A stretch of DNA of 64,000 nt from Phycisphaerales bacterium JB063 (GTDB taxonomy: Bacteria; Planctomycetota; Phycisphaerae; Phycisphaerales; Phycisphaeraceae): positions 334 to 64,333 of the forward strand of contig JBITAC010000048.1 of NCBI GenBank assembly GCA_044439905.1, in the 5' to 3' direction. The notes beneath the pieces are model-generated. The model had not been told where the DNA came from. It ran no database searches and saw only the letters and a program-made list of their open reading frames with translations. Position 1 is the stretch's first letter. The number at the start of each line of letters is the position of its first letter. Positions 1,746-45,749 of the stretch are shown here, in pieces. A program made the position numbers and the translations under genes.

Positions 1746-2015
1746 TTACTTACGCAGGCCGAGCTTCGCGATCAGGTCGAGGTACGACTGACGGTTGCTC
1801 TTCTTCAGGTAACGGAGCAGGCGGGTCCGCTTCGAGACCATCGCCAGCAGACCGCGCTGCGACGAATAGTCGTGCTTGTGCTGCTTGAGGTGGGCGGTCA
1901 TCTCCTTGATCCGGTGGGTCAGGATCGCGACCTGGACCTCGGGGCTACCGGTGTCCTTGTCGTCCCGGCCGAACTCGGCGATGACTTCCTTCTTCTTCTC
2001 AACAGTAATGCTCAT
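1746..2015 (-). CDS. rpsO: 30S ribosomal protein S15
   Basis: 89 aa with [13 protein letters not shown]...[23 protein letters not shown]...LGLRK. Confidence 0.99.
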
Positions 2016-39910: not shown

Positions 39911-39957
39911 AGGGCGCAGGGATTAGGGTGTAGGGTGTAGGTTGTAGGATAAGGGTA
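39911..39957. repeat. Period-7 repeat, left arm (AGGGTGT-type)
   Basis: AGGGCGC AGGGATT AGGGTGT AGGGTGT AGGTTGT...; inverted partner at 40332-40362. Confidence 0.75.
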
Positions 39958-40316
39958 TGGAAGGTGATGGATCGTATCGAGACCTTAAGGTTTGGCATAA
40001 GGCGATGGACCTGCTGGATGTTGTCTATGACCTTCTACCTTCACTGCCCAGTGAAGAGAAGTTTGCGCTGTCTTCGCAGATGCGTCGCGCTGCGATCTCG
40101 GTGCCTTCGAATATTGCCGAGGGGTATGGACGCCAATCGCGTCCCGACTATATCCGCTTCCTATGGATGTCTAACGGCTCGCTGAAAGAGTTGGAAACGC
40201 AGCTCCTCATTGCGCGTCGCAGAGCGTATTGGTCCAAAGAACAGGCCCAGCCATGCTGGGATTTATGCCAGGAAACAGGGAGAATGCTCCGTGCCCTGAT
40301 CAACTCATTAAAGTGA
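39957..40316 (+). CDS. Four helix bundle protein (IVS/bAvd-like family)
   Basis: SYRDLKVWHKAM...EEKFALSSQMRRAAISVPSNIAEGYGR...SNGSLKELETQL. Confidence 0.92.
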   Translation: MEGDGSYRDLKVWHKAMDLLDVVYDLLPSLPSEEKFALSSQMRRAAISVPSNIAEGYGRQSRPDYIRFLWMSNGSLKELETQLLIARRRAYWSKEQAQPCWDLCQETGRMLRALINSLK

Positions 40317-40321
40317 CATAC

Positions 40322-40867
40322 ATGCCTCCCCCCCTACACCCTACACCCCACACCCCATCCCCTTGCCTTGCATTGATTTACGCCAGATCGGAAAACCACT
40401 GCATCGGTAAAGACGGCCGAATCCCCTGGCGGCTGCCCGACGAGTTTGCGCACTTCAAGCGCACTACGATGGGTCGGCCGATCATCATGGGACGCAAAAC
40501 CTATGAAGACCACGAGTCCGCGCTGCCGGGTCGGCTGAACATCGTCGTCACCTCCGACCCGCACTATCAGGCCGCAAAGGGTGTGGTAATCACCCACACG
40601 CTCGACGACGCGATCGCACGCGCCAACGCCGAGCACAACGACGAAGGCGAGGTCTTCGTCATCGGCGGCGTCGGCCTGTTCGAGCAGGTGTTCAACCAGG
40701 CCCAGCGCGTCTACGAAACCGTGGTGCATACCATCCTCGACGGCGACACCTACCTGCCCACCTTCGATTTCACGGGCTGGACCGCGCAGACGCTGCACGA
40801 CCACCCCGCCGACGACCGGCACCCCTACGCATGGACGGCCAAGCGTTACGACCGGCCGAACGCTTAG
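40322..40867 (+). CDS. folA: Dihydrofolate reductase
   Basis: LIYARSENHCIGKDGRIPWRLPDEFAHFKRTTMGRPIIMGRKT...LPGRLNIV...VFVIGG...GDTYLP. Confidence 0.95.
   Translation: MPPPLHPTPHTPSPCLALIYARSENHCIGKDGRIPWRLPDEFAHFKRTTMGRPIIMGRKTYEDHESALPGRLNIVVTSDPHYQAAKGVVITHTLDDAIARANAEHNDEGEVFVIGGVGLFEQVFNQAQRVYETVVHTILDGDTYLPTFDFTGWTAQTLHDHPADDRHPYAWTAKRYDRPNA
40332..40362. repeat. Period-7 repeat, right arm (CCCTACA-type), inside the folA 5' end
   Basis: CCCTACA CCCTACA CCCCACA CCCCATC is the reverse complement type of 39911-39957. Confidence 0.75.
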
Positions 40868-40900
40868 CGGCAGGCGATTGCTTGGCCGCCGCGTAGGCGC

Positions 40901-41123
40901 AAAAATCCCCCGCCGGTGTTGGGGGAGGGTACCGGCGGGGGACACAGATCGGCGCGGGCCTTAGGGGGGAGGTTGGCCCACGCCGAAAAACGGCTAGCGT
41001 TGCCCGAAAGCAAAGCTCCATGAATAAGTGAATCAAGCGTGGTAGGCGGCCAAGCCCCGGCTCGGTCCCGCGACACAACGCTCAACACGGCGGGCGACAC
41101 CCGTCGTGTGTGATAGCATTATC
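40901..41123 (-). ncRNA. Candidate sRNA (~210 nt) ending in two hairpins with C-rich anti-SD-like loops and a U-tract
   Basis: Hairpins 40950-40985 (loop AACCTCCCCCCTAA on minus) and 40906-40942 (loop ACCCTCCCCCAAC), then TTTTT. Upstream -10-like GATAAT at 41123-41118. No convincing ORF. Confidence 0.4.
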
Positions 41124-41148
41124 GTCAACGTAATCACATCGCACTATG

Positions 41149-41160
41149 GGGTAAATACCC
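41149..41160. promoter_or_regulatory. Palindromic box GGGTA-AA-TACCC
   Basis: Perfect 5+2+5 palindrome; near-copy GGGTA-TA-CACCC at 44507-44518. Confidence 0.4.
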
Positions 41161-41225
41161 GAAAATGCTTCCACTTTCTCGGCATGGCGTTCTACCGAAA
41201 ACGGGCACCCGATAATCAACGGCGG

Positions 41226-41882
41226 CTACGCCTCCGAGAGCCCCTCACGGATCGCGTACCGAGCAAGCTCGACGCGGTCGTGGATATTCAGCTTCCGCAT
41301 CACGTTCTCGACATGTTTATCGACCGTGCTGACGCTGCGGTGAATCTGCTGGGCGACCTCTTTCTTGGTCATACCCTGGGCGATGTAACGCAGGATCTCG
41401 ACTTCGCGCGGGGTGAGCGTTGAGGACTTGGTCGGGCCGGCGTCTTCGTGTGTCAGACCTTTTTCCGGGTCCACCACCAGCCGGTCACGCACCTTGGGCG
41501 AGTAGTACGCGCCGTCGTTCGCGGCCTGTCGCACCGCATCCACCACACGGTCGGCCGACTCATCCTTGGTGACATAACCCGAGCAGCCCGACCGCAACGC
41601 GTCTTCGATATATCGGTCGCTGAAAAACGCGCTCAGGAAGATCACGCGGGTATCGGGGTGCGACGCGATAATCTCACGCGCGGCGTCGAAACTCACCTTA
41701 CCGGGCATGTCGATATCAAGCAGCACGACCGTCGGCTCAAGCCGATTGGCCGCTTCGACCGCGAGCGACGCATCCGTCACACGCCCCACCACACGCAGGT
41801 CCGGCTCCTTGTCCAGCCGATCCGCCAACGAGTCCATCAACATCTCGTGGTCGTCGGCCAATAGAATCGTGATCTTTGCCAT
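41226..41882 (-). CDS. NarL/FixJ-family response regulator (REC + LuxR HTH)
   Basis: ILLADDH, LLDIDMPG, LSAF, VTKD, LTPREVEIL...MRKLNIHDRVEL. Confidence 0.95.
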   Translation of the reverse strand: MAKITILLADDHEMLMDSLADRLDKEPDLRVVGRVTDASLAVEAANRLEPTVVLLDIDMPGKVSFDAAREIIASHPDTRVIFLSAFFSDRYIEDALRSGCSGYVTKDESADRVVDAVRQAANDGAYYSPKVRDRLVVDPEKGLTHEDAGPTKSSTLTPREVEILRYIAQGMTKKEVAQQIHRSVSTVDKHVENVMRKLNIHDRVELARYAIREGLSEA

Positions 41883-41902
41883 AAGGCCCCCATATCTATC
41901 CA

Positions 41903-44116
41903 CTACGTCTCCGCCCGCATCGATTCTACCGCAGTCGCCACATCATGGATACGAAACGGTTTGGCCAGCGTGACCAGACCAAGCTGCTCGGCAACCTCAA
42001 GCTCCGCCTCTGTGCCGATCAGCAGCAGGGCCGCGCGAGACTCGGCGGCACCGACGAGTTCTTGATGCGACAGAAGCTGCACGTCCGAAATCAGCATCGT
42101 GCCCCGCTCCACCGGGTCCGACAACCGAGCCAGCATCGCCGAGGGGTCCTCGCACGACGCGGTGCTCAGGCCATGGCTCATCAGCTCGGCCACCACCGCC
42201 CCACGCACTTGACGATGCGCCATCGCGACCCAGACCCGGCGGGCACTCCCCCGGGGCACCCCCGCCCGCGGTGCCGACTCGACCGCTGAGAGCGATGCAT
42301 CGGCCGAGCTGTCATGCTGCAGCGCCGCCGCGCGATCCGGCATTGCCGACGCCACGGAATCCGTACCCACCCGCGGCAGGCGCAACGTGAATCGTGTGCC
42401 TACCCCCACCTCACTCTGCGCATCGATCGTGCCGCCCATCTCCCGGACGATCGAGGCCACCACCGAGAGCCCGAGCCCGGTGCCCTCGCCCGGCGGCTTG
42501 GTCGTGAACAACGGCTCGAAGATCTGCGGGAGCAGCTCGGGCGCGATCCCCGAGCCGGTGTCTTTGACATAGAGGTCGACGCGATCTCCCGCGTCGGGGG
42601 CACGGCGCAGGCCGATATCGACCCGGCCGCCGGCCGCGCCCATCGCGTCGCGTGCGTTGACGAGCAGGTTCATGATCACCTGCTGAAGCCGGCCCGGGTC
42701 GCAGCGGACCCGACCCACCGGGCCCACCGGCTCGGCCAAGTGGATACGCACCCGCGCGGGCATCAGACCCCGGCACAGCGCGACCGACTTGAGCACCGCC
42801 GGCCACAGATCGATCGGCTCGCAGCGCTGCGCCTCGGGCCGACGACTGAGGCTGAGCATCGAACGCGACAACGCCGACGCCTGGTCGACCGCGGTGTCCA
42901 TCGCCTGGAGCGAGCCGCGGAGGTCGGGGGCGTGGCCCAGACGCTTCTCCAACTGCGCCCGGTGCAGGGCCAGCACAGCCAGCAGGTTGTTCATATCGTG
43001 CGCGACCCCACCCGCGAGCTGCGCAACCGTCTCCATCCGCTGCGCGTCGTAGAGCTGGTCCCGTAGCGTCAGCGCCTGCTGGTCGGCCCGGCGTCGCTGG
43101 TACGCGACCGCCACCAGCAGCAACGACGAAAGCAGCATCACAAAGAGGAAGGCCTGCAGCGCGTAAACCGTCTCATTGCCCGGCAACTCGGTCCTGAAGA
43201 ACGGCCCGCGGAAGACCGTCGGATCCAGCCCGATGACCTCGGCCAGCGCCCCCTTTGCGGTAAAGACCGCGACCATCGCAGCAGCGAGGGTCGCCGCCGA
43301 GGCGAACCGCGCGGTGAAACGCAGCGCCGCCCAGACGATCAGCGGCACGACCAGGTACGGGTAGTCGAGCACCGACTCCGTCGCCAGGCGGATCGGGCCG
43401 ACCGCGACCATGCTAACCAGCAACAGCGCGACAAACAGCACCGCGCCTTCGACCAGGTGCCAGCCCGGCCGCTCGCCCCACGGCACCTCGGCAGGCCGGG
43501 CCCAGGCGACGACCACCGGCGCCACCGCCAGCACACCCAGCGCATCCGAGAGCCACCACACCTGCCAGATCGGCAAGTAGTTGAACCCCTCAAACGAGGC
43601 GACATACGCCAGCGACCCCACCGCCGCGCTCGCCGCCGTCGCCAGCAGGACACCGAAAACCACAAACACGAGCAGCAGACGCGGCCGCGTCAGGTCCGGC
43701 ACGCCCCGCGACAGCAGCCCAATCGGCAGCGCCCCAAGCATCCCCTCCGCCAGCGCACATGGCGTCCAGATCGCGGTCTGGCCCCAGGCCAGGCCATGGA
43801 CCCGGACATCCGAATGCACCAACACCACCGACGCGACCAGCACCACCCAAGGCCAAAGCCGCCACCGGCAGACCGCAAACACCCCCATCAGCAGCCCGCT
43901 GCTGGGCCAGAACACCGCAACCGATTCCGGGTCGACCCCGATGGGTTGGAAGTAGGTCGCCGAGCCGATCTCATGGACCGACGCGAAGCCAAGCCCAAAC
44001 GCCCCCAGCAAGACCGCCGAGCGCCAGCCCCCACGCAGCCCGCGCGCCCCCGCGACCAGCCCCACCGCCACGAGCCCCGCGGCCAGCGTCCAGATCGGTG
44101 GAAAATCACTCGGCAT
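41903..44116 (-). CDS. MASE1-domain sensor histidine kinase with degenerate C-terminal receiver
   Basis: MASE1 TM region (FWPSSG, WWLSDALG), H-box VAHDMNNLL, NLLVNARDAM, DTGSGI, FEPLFTTK, GTGLGL. Confidence 0.92.
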   Translation of the reverse strand: MPSDFPPIWTLAAGLVAVGLVAGARGLRGGWRSAVLLGAFGLGFASVHEIGSATYFQPIGVDPESVAVFWPSSGLLMGVFAVCRWRLWPWVVLVASVVLVHSDVRVHGLAWGQTAIWTPCALAEGMLGALPIGLLSRGVPDLTRPRLLLVFVVFGVLLATAASAAVGSLAYVASFEGFNYLPIWQVWWLSDALGVLAVAPVVVAWARPAEVPWGERPGWHLVEGAVLFVALLLVSMVAVGPIRLATESVLDYPYLVVPLIVWAALRFTARFASAATLAAAMVAVFTAKGALAEVIGLDPTVFRGPFFRTELPGNETVYALQAFLFVMLLSSLLLVAVAYQRRRADQQALTLRDQLYDAQRMETVAQLAGGVAHDMNNLLAVLALHRAQLEKRLGHAPDLRGSLQAMDTAVDQASALSRSMLSLSRRPEAQRCEPIDLWPAVLKSVALCRGLMPARVRIHLAEPVGPVGRVRCDPGRLQQVIMNLLVNARDAMGAAGGRVDIGLRRAPDAGDRVDLYVKDTGSGIAPELLPQIFEPLFTTKPPGEGTGLGLSVVASIVREMGGTIDAQSEVGVGTRFTLRLPRVGTDSVASAMPDRAAALQHDSSADASLSAVESAPRAGVPRGSARRVWVAMAHRQVRGAVVAELMSHGLSTASCEDPSAMLARLSDPVERGTMLISDVQLLSHQELVGAAESRAALLLIGTEAELEVAEQLGLVTLAKPFRIHDVATAVESMRAET

Positions 44117-44244
44117 CGTCAACGCCCCATCGGCCAAGTCGTACCCAACCCCCCGGCCGGGCCACACCCCGTGTGACGCGCCACGAAGATAGCAGGATTA
44201 TGCAAGCAGGCACGCCAAGCGACACTCGGCCCAGACAGGCAAGC

Positions 44245-44471
44245 AAAACCCCCGCCGACCAAGGGGGGGGAGGTGGCCAACGGGGGCTTTGGGCGCCAGC
44301 CGGGCAAGCCCGGCGGTACCGCAAGCGTCTGCCCACGCGGTCGCGCGGGAAGCTTCAGAACGGCAGCGTCGTTTCGTGACAGCACCGTGGATTGTCCAAG
44401 ACAAGACATGGGGGCCGACGCGCGAGTCCAGGGGGTGCGTCTGGCCCTACCACCCACTGCTTAGCACTATA
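44245..44471 (-). ncRNA. Second candidate sRNA (~215 nt) ending in a hairpin with an ACCTCCCC loop and a U-tract
   Basis: Minus strand GCCCCCGTTGGCC-ACCTCCCCCCCCTT-GGTCGGCGGGGGT then TTT. Upstream TATAGT (44471-44466) and GGGTA box at 44507-44518. Confidence 0.35.
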
Positions 44472-44571
44472 GCCGCTGGCCGCCCCGCTGTCTGGCCTAA
44501 AGCGATGGGTATACACCCTAAGTTATTCCAGCAGTGCAAAGATTGCACTTGATGCTGCAACGTCGCCGCGA

Positions 44572-44832
44572 TCAGAGCCAACGCCCCAACAGCAGCAGCA
44601 AGATCAGCGCCGCCATCACCACGACAACCCAGCGGTAGTACCCCGCCGTTTGGCGTGTCGGCTTCGCGGGCCCGTCACCGAACGCCTCGTCGGGCAGGTC
44701 CAGCCCGTCATACATCGTGTCCTCCGACCAGCCGGTCTCGTCGTCCGCGCCACACGATGGACACGCCAACGCCCCACCCGGCACGGGCTCGCCACAGTTC
44801 GGACAATCAAACGATTCACGCGATGCAGGCAT
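44572..44832 (-). CDS. Small zinc-ribbon membrane protein
   Basis: CPNCG...CPSCGADDETGWSE followed by a C-terminal hydrophobic helix. Confidence 0.75.
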   Translation of the reverse strand: MPASRESFDCPNCGEPVPGGALACPSCGADDETGWSEDTMYDGLDLPDEAFGDGPAKPTRQTAGYYRWVVVVMAALILLLLLGRWL

Positions 44833-44894
44833 GCAATTCAGTGTATCGGCAGGCGTCAGCGAGATCGCTCCAAAACGCGCCATCGGGGAACCGC

Positions 44895-45749
44895 TTAGTC
44901 CGCCTGCATGTCGCGGCGAACCCCCAGCAGGCGGGCGATCTCGTCTTCACTCAAGACCTCGTCGGCAGCCAAGTCCCATCGCTCGTCGTCCTGCAATGCC
45001 ACGCGCAGTAAAGCCAGCGATTCAGCATCCAGCGTGCCGACCTGGGCACCGTCCTCATCGACGTCGGGCGCGGGACATGACTTCGAGATGGGATCGGCAC
45101 ACGCCACGCGTTTAGCGAGCAGACGTAGCCGATCGTCGCGCGTCATCCTCGGTAAAGGGGTCGCAAGACGCAGGGGCCAGGACACCGGCATGAACAAGAC
45201 ACGCTCAAGCCAGACCGGCAGCGTTTCTCGGAGTTCGTCGATCGGGTCGAGACGCTGGGGCTGGGCAGAGCCAATCATCGGGGGCGATTTGGACCACACC
45301 GGCTTCGGGATCGGGGCCGGGGGGATGGGCGGCTGATTCGCTCGGCGGTCGTCGTTGGCCTGGCTCAACGACGACAATCGACCACGCATGCCATCGTGCA
45401 GCTGCGCCAGCTCCGGGCCCGGCAGGGTCGGGGACTTCGCGACGCGGGCATTCGCGTAGTTCAACCGCTCATCATTCATCGTCGATACGGCGGGGGCACG
45501 ATCCGCCGCTTGGCTCGTGACGTCCTGCCTGTCCGCCGCATCGCACACCCTGGCCGGTGCCGGCGGGTCGGCATTGGCCGCGTATCGATGGAGCAGGTAG
45601 CGGACGACCTCGGCACGTACTCGCCAAAGCCAGGCCCAGTCGCCATCGGGGGCAGAACACAGCATCTCATCCAACCGGTCAAGGCGCGAGCGCCAGCCGG
45701 CGATCGTCTGGGCTGAAACCTCGGGTTGATGGGCCTTGCCCCGCATCAC
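44895..45749 (-). CDS. Hypothetical protein
   Basis: 284-aa ORF filling the gap between the sulfatase and the zinc-ribbon gene on the same strand. Confidence 0.6.
   Translation of the reverse strand: MMRGKAHQPEVSAQTIAGWRSRLDRLDEMLCSAPDGDWAWLWRVRAEVVRYLLHRYAANADPPAPARVCDAADRQDVTSQAADRAPAVSTMNDERLNYANARVAKSPTLPGPELAQLHDGMRGRLSSLSQANDDRRANQPPIPPAPIPKPVWSKSPPMIGSAQPQRLDPIDELRETLPVWLERVLFMPVSWPLRLATPLPRMTRDDRLRLLAKRVACADPISKSCPAPDVDEDGAQVGTLDAESLALLRVALQDDERWDLAADEVLSEDEIARLLGVRRDMQAD

Follow-up and report, generated by a model that had tools for sequence, protein, structure and literature searches.

A conserved association between a NarL-family regulator gene and a candidate small RNA gene in Phycisphaeraceae

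Do the two non-coding intervals that flank a sensor kinase and response regulator gene pair in Phycisphaerales bacterium JB063 encode RNAs, and does the adjacent regulator control them? The locus lies within a stretch of 64,000 nucleotides (nt) of contig JBITAC010000048.1 (here called the window), part of a metagenome-assembled genome (MAG) of 4.08 Mb, 65% GC and 178 contigs, referred to below as G000. A sequence-only reading of the window had described the same layout in both intervals, here called unit A (before the kinase gene) and unit B (after the regulator gene): a palindromic box and a -10-like hexamer, then some 210 nt without a credible open reading frame (ORF), and finally a GC hairpin followed by a U-tract. 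All of these elements are present where they had been placed, and Pfam agrees that the flanked genes encode a MASE1 kinase and a NarL-type regulator. From its conservation, the locus can be read with moderate confidence as a conserved Phycisphaeraceae signalling module, composed of sensor kinase, NarL-family regulator and a downstream small RNA (sRNA) gene, unit B, which the regulator would activate. Coordinates are window positions, and all features of the locus are on the minus strand except folA.

Unit B and its linkage to the regulator gene

Unit B runs from its box to the end of its terminator (41160 to 40901, minus strand). The promoter region (41118..41160) consists of the box GGGTATTTACCC (41160-41149), the dinucleotide CA, TAGTGC (41146-41141), 17 nt, and the -10 hexamer GATAAT (41123-41118). 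With the transcription start site (TSS) set 7 nt past the -10 hexamer, the box, a perfect palindrome, is centred at about -43.5 and TAGTGC occupies the -35 position; the palindrome abuts this weak -35, as expected of a class-II activator site. The predicted RNA of about 211 nt (40901..41111) has a variable 5' part and ends in two hairpins: hairpin 1 (40985-40950), with the loop AACCUCCCCCCUAA, and the terminator (40943-40901), with the loop ACCCUCCCCCAAC followed by U5. The fold has a z score of -3.7.

At each of the 11 loci that could be checked, nine in genomes belonging to two genera and two on metagenome contigs (G000, G002, G003, G004, G062, G065, G067, G068, G069, L138 and L146), unit B follows an orthologous regulator gene directly. 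The regulator orthologues in the two genera, g1 and g18, are 57-72% identical, and the gene neighborhoods differ: a Zn-ribbon gene and folA in g1, ABC1-kinase and pyruvate kinase genes in g18. Within g1, the three other species with a kinase orthologue (G002, G003 and G004) all have unit B, as does a JGI contig of the same layout. When the family was searched by regulator protein and the downstream DNA inspected, every regulator with a (S/G)T(V/I)DKH recognition helix (STVDKHVEN in the window) proved to have a C-run hairpin unit after it.

The promoter is conserved along with this position. A GGGG-N6-CCCC core and a GATACT-type -10 are present at all 11 loci, and the fuller consensus sGGG-N4-TRCCCCATRGYG-N17/18-GATAMT, in which sGGG-N4-TRCCCCATRGYG forms a 20-nt element, at ten of them, with the same spacing of box, -35 and -10; the outlier, G067, retains just a perfect palindrome, GGGGTACTCACCCC, and the -10. 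Scanning 401 genomes of the order with the pattern CCCCATRGYG-N18-GATAMT gave seven matches, six of them immediately after the gene for a regulator orthologue (four in g1, two in g18), while the reversed-pattern control gave none. The corresponding scan of metagenomes gave 24 matches, about the chance level overall, one of them (L146) a true module, in which a hybrid kinase and a regulator sharing 60% identity with that of the window are accompanied by the box, the promoter and a predicted RNA containing two hairpins with C-run loops. Within G000, a regular expression for the half-site plus -10 finds units A and B only, and the unit B-type promoter occurs once. These distributions support the view that unit B is inseparable from the (S/G)T(V/I)DKH regulator subfamily.

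More distant regulators, with KTVENH or KTVEGH helices (G085, G149, G134, G128), are also followed by a GGGT-N4/5-ACC box and a terminator hairpin with a C-run loop, and these loops share ACCUG(G)ACCCCCC with g18; the G149 kinase has PAS domains and is not obviously of the MASE1 type. Taken together with the unit B loci, this makes the pairing of regulator and candidate sRNA an old and recurrent arrangement in Phycisphaeraceae, which is the strongest support for the idea that the regulator drives the candidate sRNA.

Evidence that the units are RNA genes

Both unit B hairpins fold independently in G000, G002, G003 and the JGI contig, with different stems, and compensatory C:G to U:A changes distinguish the terminator stems of orthologues. 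Two hairpins with C-rich loops are found in four of the five unit B orthologues of genus g1; G004 has kept the loop of the terminator and not the C-run loop of hairpin 1. Termination cannot account for the conservation of hairpin 1, which lacks a U-tract, and in genus g18 the C-run hairpins are distinct from the terminator, whose loop is not C-rich. Long hairpins with C-run loops are also rare in G000: a scan of the whole 4.08 Mb genome found the three at this locus and approximately one other of similar quality. The length of the C-run in unit B terminator loops varies among orthologues from 5 to 15 C; the longest, C15 in G004 (L002:4660-4680), is an example of variation that may reflect either slippage-prone sequence or assembly uncertainty.

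A home-made covariance model built from the 3' modules (CM R1, whose E-values are rough) scores unit B at 87 bits and unit A at 66 bits. Among 144 genomes of the family, CM R1 found one additional strong copy, of A type, in G001, and a weak 36-bit match in G004, and nothing beyond five species. With one or two strong copies per positive genome, the possibility that the units are a mobile repeat was rejected. Sense-strand ORFs of 20-80 amino acids do exist in the units; small-protein coding was rejected as well, as similarity between orthologues is seen in all three frames with the frame shifting, which indicates conservation at the nucleotide rather than the coding level, and the ORFs traverse the terminator.

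The terminators of both units are specific to the minus strand, and both units have weak -35 hexamers, as expected of activator-dependent promoters. Promoter islands, intrinsic terminators, compensatory pairs and the lack of a frame-consistent ORF are together what would be looked for in sRNA genes generally. The evidence supports a view of both units as independent, conserved non-coding transcription units, and we consider it quite probable that they are real sRNA genes. Their RNAs would be a new family, so far restricted to Phycisphaeraceae, although mechanistically of a kind already known.

Unit A, a lineage-specific sibling

Unit A (44518 to 44245 from box to terminator end, minus strand) has the box GGGTGTATACCC at 44507..44518. 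Read on the plus strand as GGGTA-TA-CACCC, it is a palindrome broken at one arm position, so that of the two palindromes originally described only that of unit B is perfect. Its center is at about -53.5 from the inferred TSS, one helical turn from the -43.5 of unit B. Downstream are promoter-like elements (44466..44494) comprising CAGACA (44494-44489, -35-like), 17 nt and TATAGT (44471-44466), the sole sigma70-like match within 40000-45500. The predicted RNA, about 215 nt (44245..44459), has a variable 5' half and a 3' portion of about 105 nt with three computed hairpins, at 44349-44332, 44320-44292 and, as terminator, 44287-44245. The C-run motif is found in one of the three: the terminator has an 18-bp stem, the loop CCUCCCCCCCCU and a UUUU tail.

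Three species carry unit A (G000, G004 and G001), and their alignment shows conserved islands amid diverged DNA. The islands are the box (TAGGGT-N4-ACCC, with divergent flanks), the -10 (TAyAaT, 34-35 nt from the box; TACAAT in G004 and G001) and the 3' 105 nt or so, which is about 90% identical, vs 56% for the kinase protein; the first 100 or so transcribed nucleotides are unconserved. The unit was not present in G002, G003 or the JGI contig, where the Zn-ribbon gene abuts the kinase gene. In G001 it is found between the Zn-ribbon gene and folA, convergent to the latter, in a genome with no orthologue of either the kinase or the regulator. A role as leader or attenuator of the kinase gene is ruled out by this copy, which has no downstream gene.

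What, then, might control it? The box of unit A may be one of a set of related operators read by related regulators, and the unit may be shared or cross-regulated. Since it survives in G001 without the gene pair, the adjacent regulator cannot be its only driver. The proposal that the regulator activates two sibling RNAs consequently divides: for unit B it is backed by the consistent linkage, and on balance activation by the adjacent regulator seems probable there, while for unit A such activation is a tentative suggestion, on which we lean toward doubt.

The kinase and the regulator

The sensor histidine kinase (41903..44167, minus strand; start at 44167 or possibly the ATG at 44116) has MASE1, HisKA and HATPase domains, with Pfam E-values of 2.8e-23 for MASE1 and 1.3e-27 for HATPase_c; HisKA is below the Pfam cutoff (22.6 vs 26.9 bits). 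It has a candidate promoter of its own, CATAAT at 44202-44197. The NarL/FixJ-type regulator (41226..41903, minus strand; likely start ATG 41882) combines a receiver (REC; Response_reg, 5.5e-18) with a GerE helix-turn-helix domain (3.8e-19), and the acidic pocket and conserved residues (Asp, Ser/Thr, Lys) are all present in its receiver.

Kinase orthologues are few: among 61 relatives, just G004 (56% identity) and G003 and G002 (43-44%) have one, and a broader search of genome contigs with the kinase query found only generic histidine-kinase cores of unrelated phyla. The g18 homologue is a MASE1-PAS-HisKA-HATPase-REC protein. The C-terminal 150 or so residues of the window's kinase (approximately 600-754; 41903-42360, minus strand) have no Pfam match; at the equivalent place the g18 homologue carries a genuine receiver domain, and the region may be a degenerate receiver.

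A regulatory model and its alternatives

In the proposed circuit, a dimer of the phosphorylated regulator would bind the GGGG-N6-CCCC(AT) palindrome at about -43.5, where it abuts a poor -35, and activate transcription of an RNA of about 210 nt ending at the intrinsic terminator. The RNA would present one or two runs of at least five C (UCCCCC...) in hairpin loops, acting as seeds for pairing with target mRNAs at G-rich tracts (GGGGG or GGAGG) that often lie at ribosome-binding sites. Hfq would probably not be needed, 6C, RoxS/RsaE and sX13 being precedents. Unit A would be a lineage-specific sibling with the same type of box, one helical turn further upstream, and the same style of C-run terminator, placed before the kinase gene; it may share the regulator where this is present, and must also be expressible without it.

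Several observations weigh against this model. In G002, G003 and the JGI contig, the unit B box has a degenerate left arm (GGCA or GGCG). G001 has kept unit A, with its box and fold, without the kinase or regulator, and a third sRNA candidate, linked to mutS, has a related box (GGGTCAATACCT, GGGT-N4-ACCT) in G001 and G006, neither of which has the pair. Nor is there a sign of a wider regulon: in six genomes the box is not enriched, counts of GGGTNNNTACCC being equal to those of the reversed-pattern control, and further perfect copies fall within ORFs (among them an integrase and a hydrolase) or in unrelated contexts, for which reasons the box was rejected as a regulon marker. Even in the window, the two matches with at most one mismatch (0.57 expected) are a number reached in 13 of 100 shuffles. 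The 12-bp 5-2-5 palindrome is also more compact than the well-studied NarL-family sites. Crude duplex predictions singled out no target. Finally, unit B may adjoin the regulator gene through co-inheritance, or because it arose as a 3' untranslated region (UTR), and not for regulatory reasons.

The first of these alternatives, co-inheritance, is the more serious. The C-run sRNAs may be real and yet not be under the adjacent regulator: their boxes may be operators for another factor, such as a genus-wide NarL paralogue or an unrelated regulator, or their promoters may be constitutive, with adjacency a matter of inheritance as a block. The best regulator match in G001 is such a paralogue, 43% identical, found in 15 of 15 genomes of the genus and with the recognition helix NTVAVHTNR. 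Consistent with this are the unit A and mutS-linked boxes in genomes lacking the pair, a palindrome (ACAGGTCAATCCTGT, followed by TAGTGCGA) downstream of the G000 gene for this paralogue, and the boxes and C-run hairpins of the KTVENH/KTVEGH subfamilies, which imply that the box type is not specific to one recognition helix. Against it, unit B accompanies TVDKH-helix regulators without exception, across two genera and two different neighborhoods; the best-conserved promoter element is specific to the loci of these regulators; and the single such promoter in G000 matches an arrangement of one regulator and one target. We regard this alternative as unlikely, though deserving of more weight than the other two alternatives.

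The model can also be extended well beyond this locus. Phycisphaeraceae NarL-type systems may generally be cassettes of a kinase, a regulator and a private sRNA, with the downstream C-run riboregulator as principal, perhaps sole, direct target, signalling passing almost wholly through post-transcriptional control, in a phylum that lacks Hfq and uses SD (Shine-Dalgarno) sequences weakly, and sibling RNAs such as unit A and unit C (the mutS-linked candidate) being shared among paralogous regulators that read related GGGT-N4-ACC operators. This is speculative, and in this general form it seems unlikely to hold.

The second alternative is that the units are the 3' UTRs or terminators of the genes upstream (the regulator operon for unit B, the Zn-ribbon gene for unit A), with any small RNA made by processing only and the C-rich loops incidental. 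Both units begin 55-65 nt past a same-strand stop codon, with weak hairpins only between stop codon and box, and compensatory changes are usual in terminator stems in any case. The -10 hexamers, however, are conserved, and so is their distance from a conserved box, although the DNA between the two and the 5' transcribed part have diverged; hairpin 1 of unit B, which is no terminator, keeps its C-run loop despite turnover of its stem; in g18 it is the internal hairpins, and not the terminator, that have C-rich loops; and C-run loops are rare among the hairpins of G000. The possibility that the hairpins act only as terminators of the upstream genes, which the sequence-only reading had listed among the outcomes that would refute it, is disfavoured on these grounds and seems quite improbable. 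Least probable of all, and very unlikely, is titration by these RNAs of a poly(C)- or C-rich-RNA-binding protein, in the manner of CsrB/RsmZ sequestering CsrA: sponge-like architecture (several identical loop motifs per RNA, several sibling RNAs) and a CsrA gene in G000 are compatible with it, but CsrA binds GGA motifs, which here are unconserved and outside the loops, no gene for a candidate C-binding protein accompanies the locus, and the C-run loops of 6C, RoxS and sX13 are known to act by base pairing (PMC6486639, PMC4409812, PMC3771888).

Loop sequences and possible targets

If the model of a regulator-driven sRNA is adopted, what would the loops pair with? The sequence-only reading had taken them for anti-Shine-Dalgarno (anti-SD) loops, and those of G000 do contain CCUCC (CCUCCCCCC-type). 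The orthologous loops (UCUCCCCC, GUCCCCC, UUUCCCCC, ACUCCCCCCC) do not conserve it: the conserved feature is a U followed by a run of at least five C, UCCCCC(C). SD sequences themselves are only weakly enriched in a crude analysis of approximately 1,560 ORFs with unambiguous starts (AGGAG, 44 vs 9; GGAG, 154 vs 56), and the G000 assembly has no 16S rRNA gene from which the anti-SD sequence could be read. With the C-run rather than CCUCC conserved and SD use weak, “C-run seed” is a better label than “anti-SD.” Hfq was not found by tblastn in G000, in which CsrA is present; this fits chaperone-independent pairing of C-rich loops, as in 6C (PMC6486639).

A scan of G000 for G-run/SD targets, noisy in the absence of gene annotation, yielded no specific target. 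Feedback pairing with the start regions of the regulator or kinase genes was rejected, these ranking just in the 5th-29th percentile of the crude duplex background.

Relationship to known small RNA systems

Neither unit matches an Rfam family at threshold. Unit A has no matches, and those of the unit B 3' end are all below threshold: 6C (RF01066; 35.3 bits vs a gathering score of 47, E = 0.09, 40987-40901, minus strand), ar7 (33.5 bits vs 60) and ErsA (28.6 bits vs 50); ar14 gave no match at E <= 10. Mechanistically, the best analogues appear to be 6C, RoxS/RsaE and sX13, and the nearest functional analogue of the proposed circuit would be RoxS/RsaE.

In 6C, C-rich loops pair with G-rich target sites without a chaperone (PMC6486639, PMC5014011). 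It resembles unit B in its high-GC hosts and its two adjacent hairpins with C-run loops (unit A has one such loop), and the unit B 3' end aligns across the whole model, positions 1-75. It differs in being actinobacterial and short (under about 100 nt), while the planctomycete RNAs, by prediction about 210 nt, include a long 5' part that varies, and in its use of SigA/SigB promoters with no tie to a two-component system. RoxS/RsaE, of Firmicutes, is driven by a two-component system (ResDE/SrrAB) and has several C-rich regions that pair with G-rich, SD-like sequences (PMC4409812, PMC5419742). As in G000, its host lacks Hfq; there is, however, no sequence or Rfam relationship, and ResD belongs to the OmpR family rather than the NarL family. 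The roxS gene is not known to be adjacent to resDE.

Gac/Rsm-type systems and the cuckoo RNAs had been cited as parallels; the RNAs of units A and B belong to neither family. Cuckoo RNAs (ar14, CcsR, RSs0680) have two to four adjacent hairpins, each with CCUCCUCCC in its loop (PMC4615179). Adjacent hairpins with identical C-rich, anti-SD-like loops and sibling copies per genome make these alphaproteobacterial RNAs similar in design, and one of the group, NfeR1, is tied to a two-component system, but CCUCCUCCC is missing from the units, whose loops are CCUCCCCCC in G000 and only UCCCCC in G002, G003 and the JGI contig; the phylum is different, and the only match to the group is the sub-threshold one to ar7. 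The Gac/Rsm (BarA-UvrY to CsrB/C; PMC4682653) and LuxO-Qrr1 systems are alike in that the direct action of the regulator falls mainly on one sRNA gene, or a small number of them, preceded by a palindromic box. Rsm/Csr RNAs, however, are protein sponges with GGA motifs, transcribed from a GacA box (TGTAAG-N6-CTTACA), and neither feature is seen here: the box is GGGT-N4-ACCC, the loops are C-runs, and the few occurrences of GGA are in the unconserved 5' halves. The Qrr RNAs are dependent on sigma54 and Hfq, and again neither feature is seen. The qrr1 gene does adjoin that of its regulator, luxO.

By analogy, the RNAs of the present locus are probably akin to regulator-driven sRNAs such as ResD-RoxS, GacA-RsmY/Z, LuxO-Qrr and NtrC-NfeR1, the last of which feeds back on NtrBC and so also has a two-component link (PMC10746234). 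The earlier statement that no such system is described in planctomycetes stands: neither a planctomycete sRNA of this kind nor any characterised regulatory RNA of Planctomycetota was found in the literature. If the model is correct, this would be a new sRNA family, and the “C-rich loop” strategy, so far known from Actinobacteria, Firmicutes, Xanthomonas and Alphaproteobacteria, would reach a third high-GC lineage, although the mechanism itself would not be novel. The proposed circuit (sensor kinase, NarL regulator, 20-nt operator, candidate sRNA with a C-run seed) is concrete, conserved and amenable to experiment, and would then give a handle on the signal of a MASE1 sensor and on translational control in bacteria with low SD use.

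Related motifs elsewhere and neighboring genes

The mutS-linked candidate (unit C), about 65 nt long and the third such C-run sRNA, is outside the window, downstream of mutS (L141:1501-1741, equivalent to G000 contig C88:16035-16275, minus strand). It has the -10 GTACTAT, then GAUCCCCCCCGCGG (GAUCCCCCUCGCGG in G004 and G001), the hairpin GGCCUGCCGG-CCUCCCCCCACU-CCGGCAGGCC and U6, with 83-89% conservation across G004, G001 and G006. In G000, G001 and G006, the -10 is preceded by a box-like AGGGTCAATACCTGATT, always at a distance of 61 nt. The 36-bit CM R1 match in G004 is another short C-run candidate (L117:1501-1588, equivalent to G004:C7:38462-38549, minus strand), with the -10 GATAGT, CAUCCCCCUAAG, the hairpin CCUCGUCGGCC-ACACCCCCCUC-GGUCGGCGAGG and U5; in the same spacer, the terminator of a plus-strand gene likewise has a CCCUCCCCCC stretch. 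The palindrome and following sequence downstream of the paralogous NarL-type regulator gene of G000 (ACAGGTCAATCCTGT, then TAGTGCGA; contig C6:10262-10310, outside the window) resemble the promoters of units B and C and have no C-run hairpin after them.

Two further sets of matches have no adjacent regulator. In another family of the order, GGGGAACTTCCCCATGGCG-N18-GATACT precedes a structured unit of about 190 nt without an ORF and with a strong terminator (L175:1400-1900; G225:C30, approximately 1906-1939, minus strand); it may be another RNA gene or, with about 4 matches expected in that scan, a chance occurrence. On peat and soil contigs (L152:10812-10853, L148, L153-L156, L159-L162, L165, L168), GGGGTGAATGCCCCATGGTG-N18-GATACT is exactly 7 nt before the ATG of a conserved ORF of about 40 amino acids for a membrane protein (MNNKTWL...), giving a leaderless-looking arrangement; this cluster, with no two-component system nearby, was set aside as unrelated or chance.

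At the locus itself, the upstream neighbor of unit A is the gene for a Zn-ribbon membrane protein (44883-44572, minus strand), and folA (40229-40867, plus strand) is convergent to unit B. The gene directly upstream of folA (39957-40316, plus strand) encodes a 23S-rRNA-intervening-sequence protein, or bAvd-like four-helix-bundle protein; in G001, thyA and folA adjoin without it.

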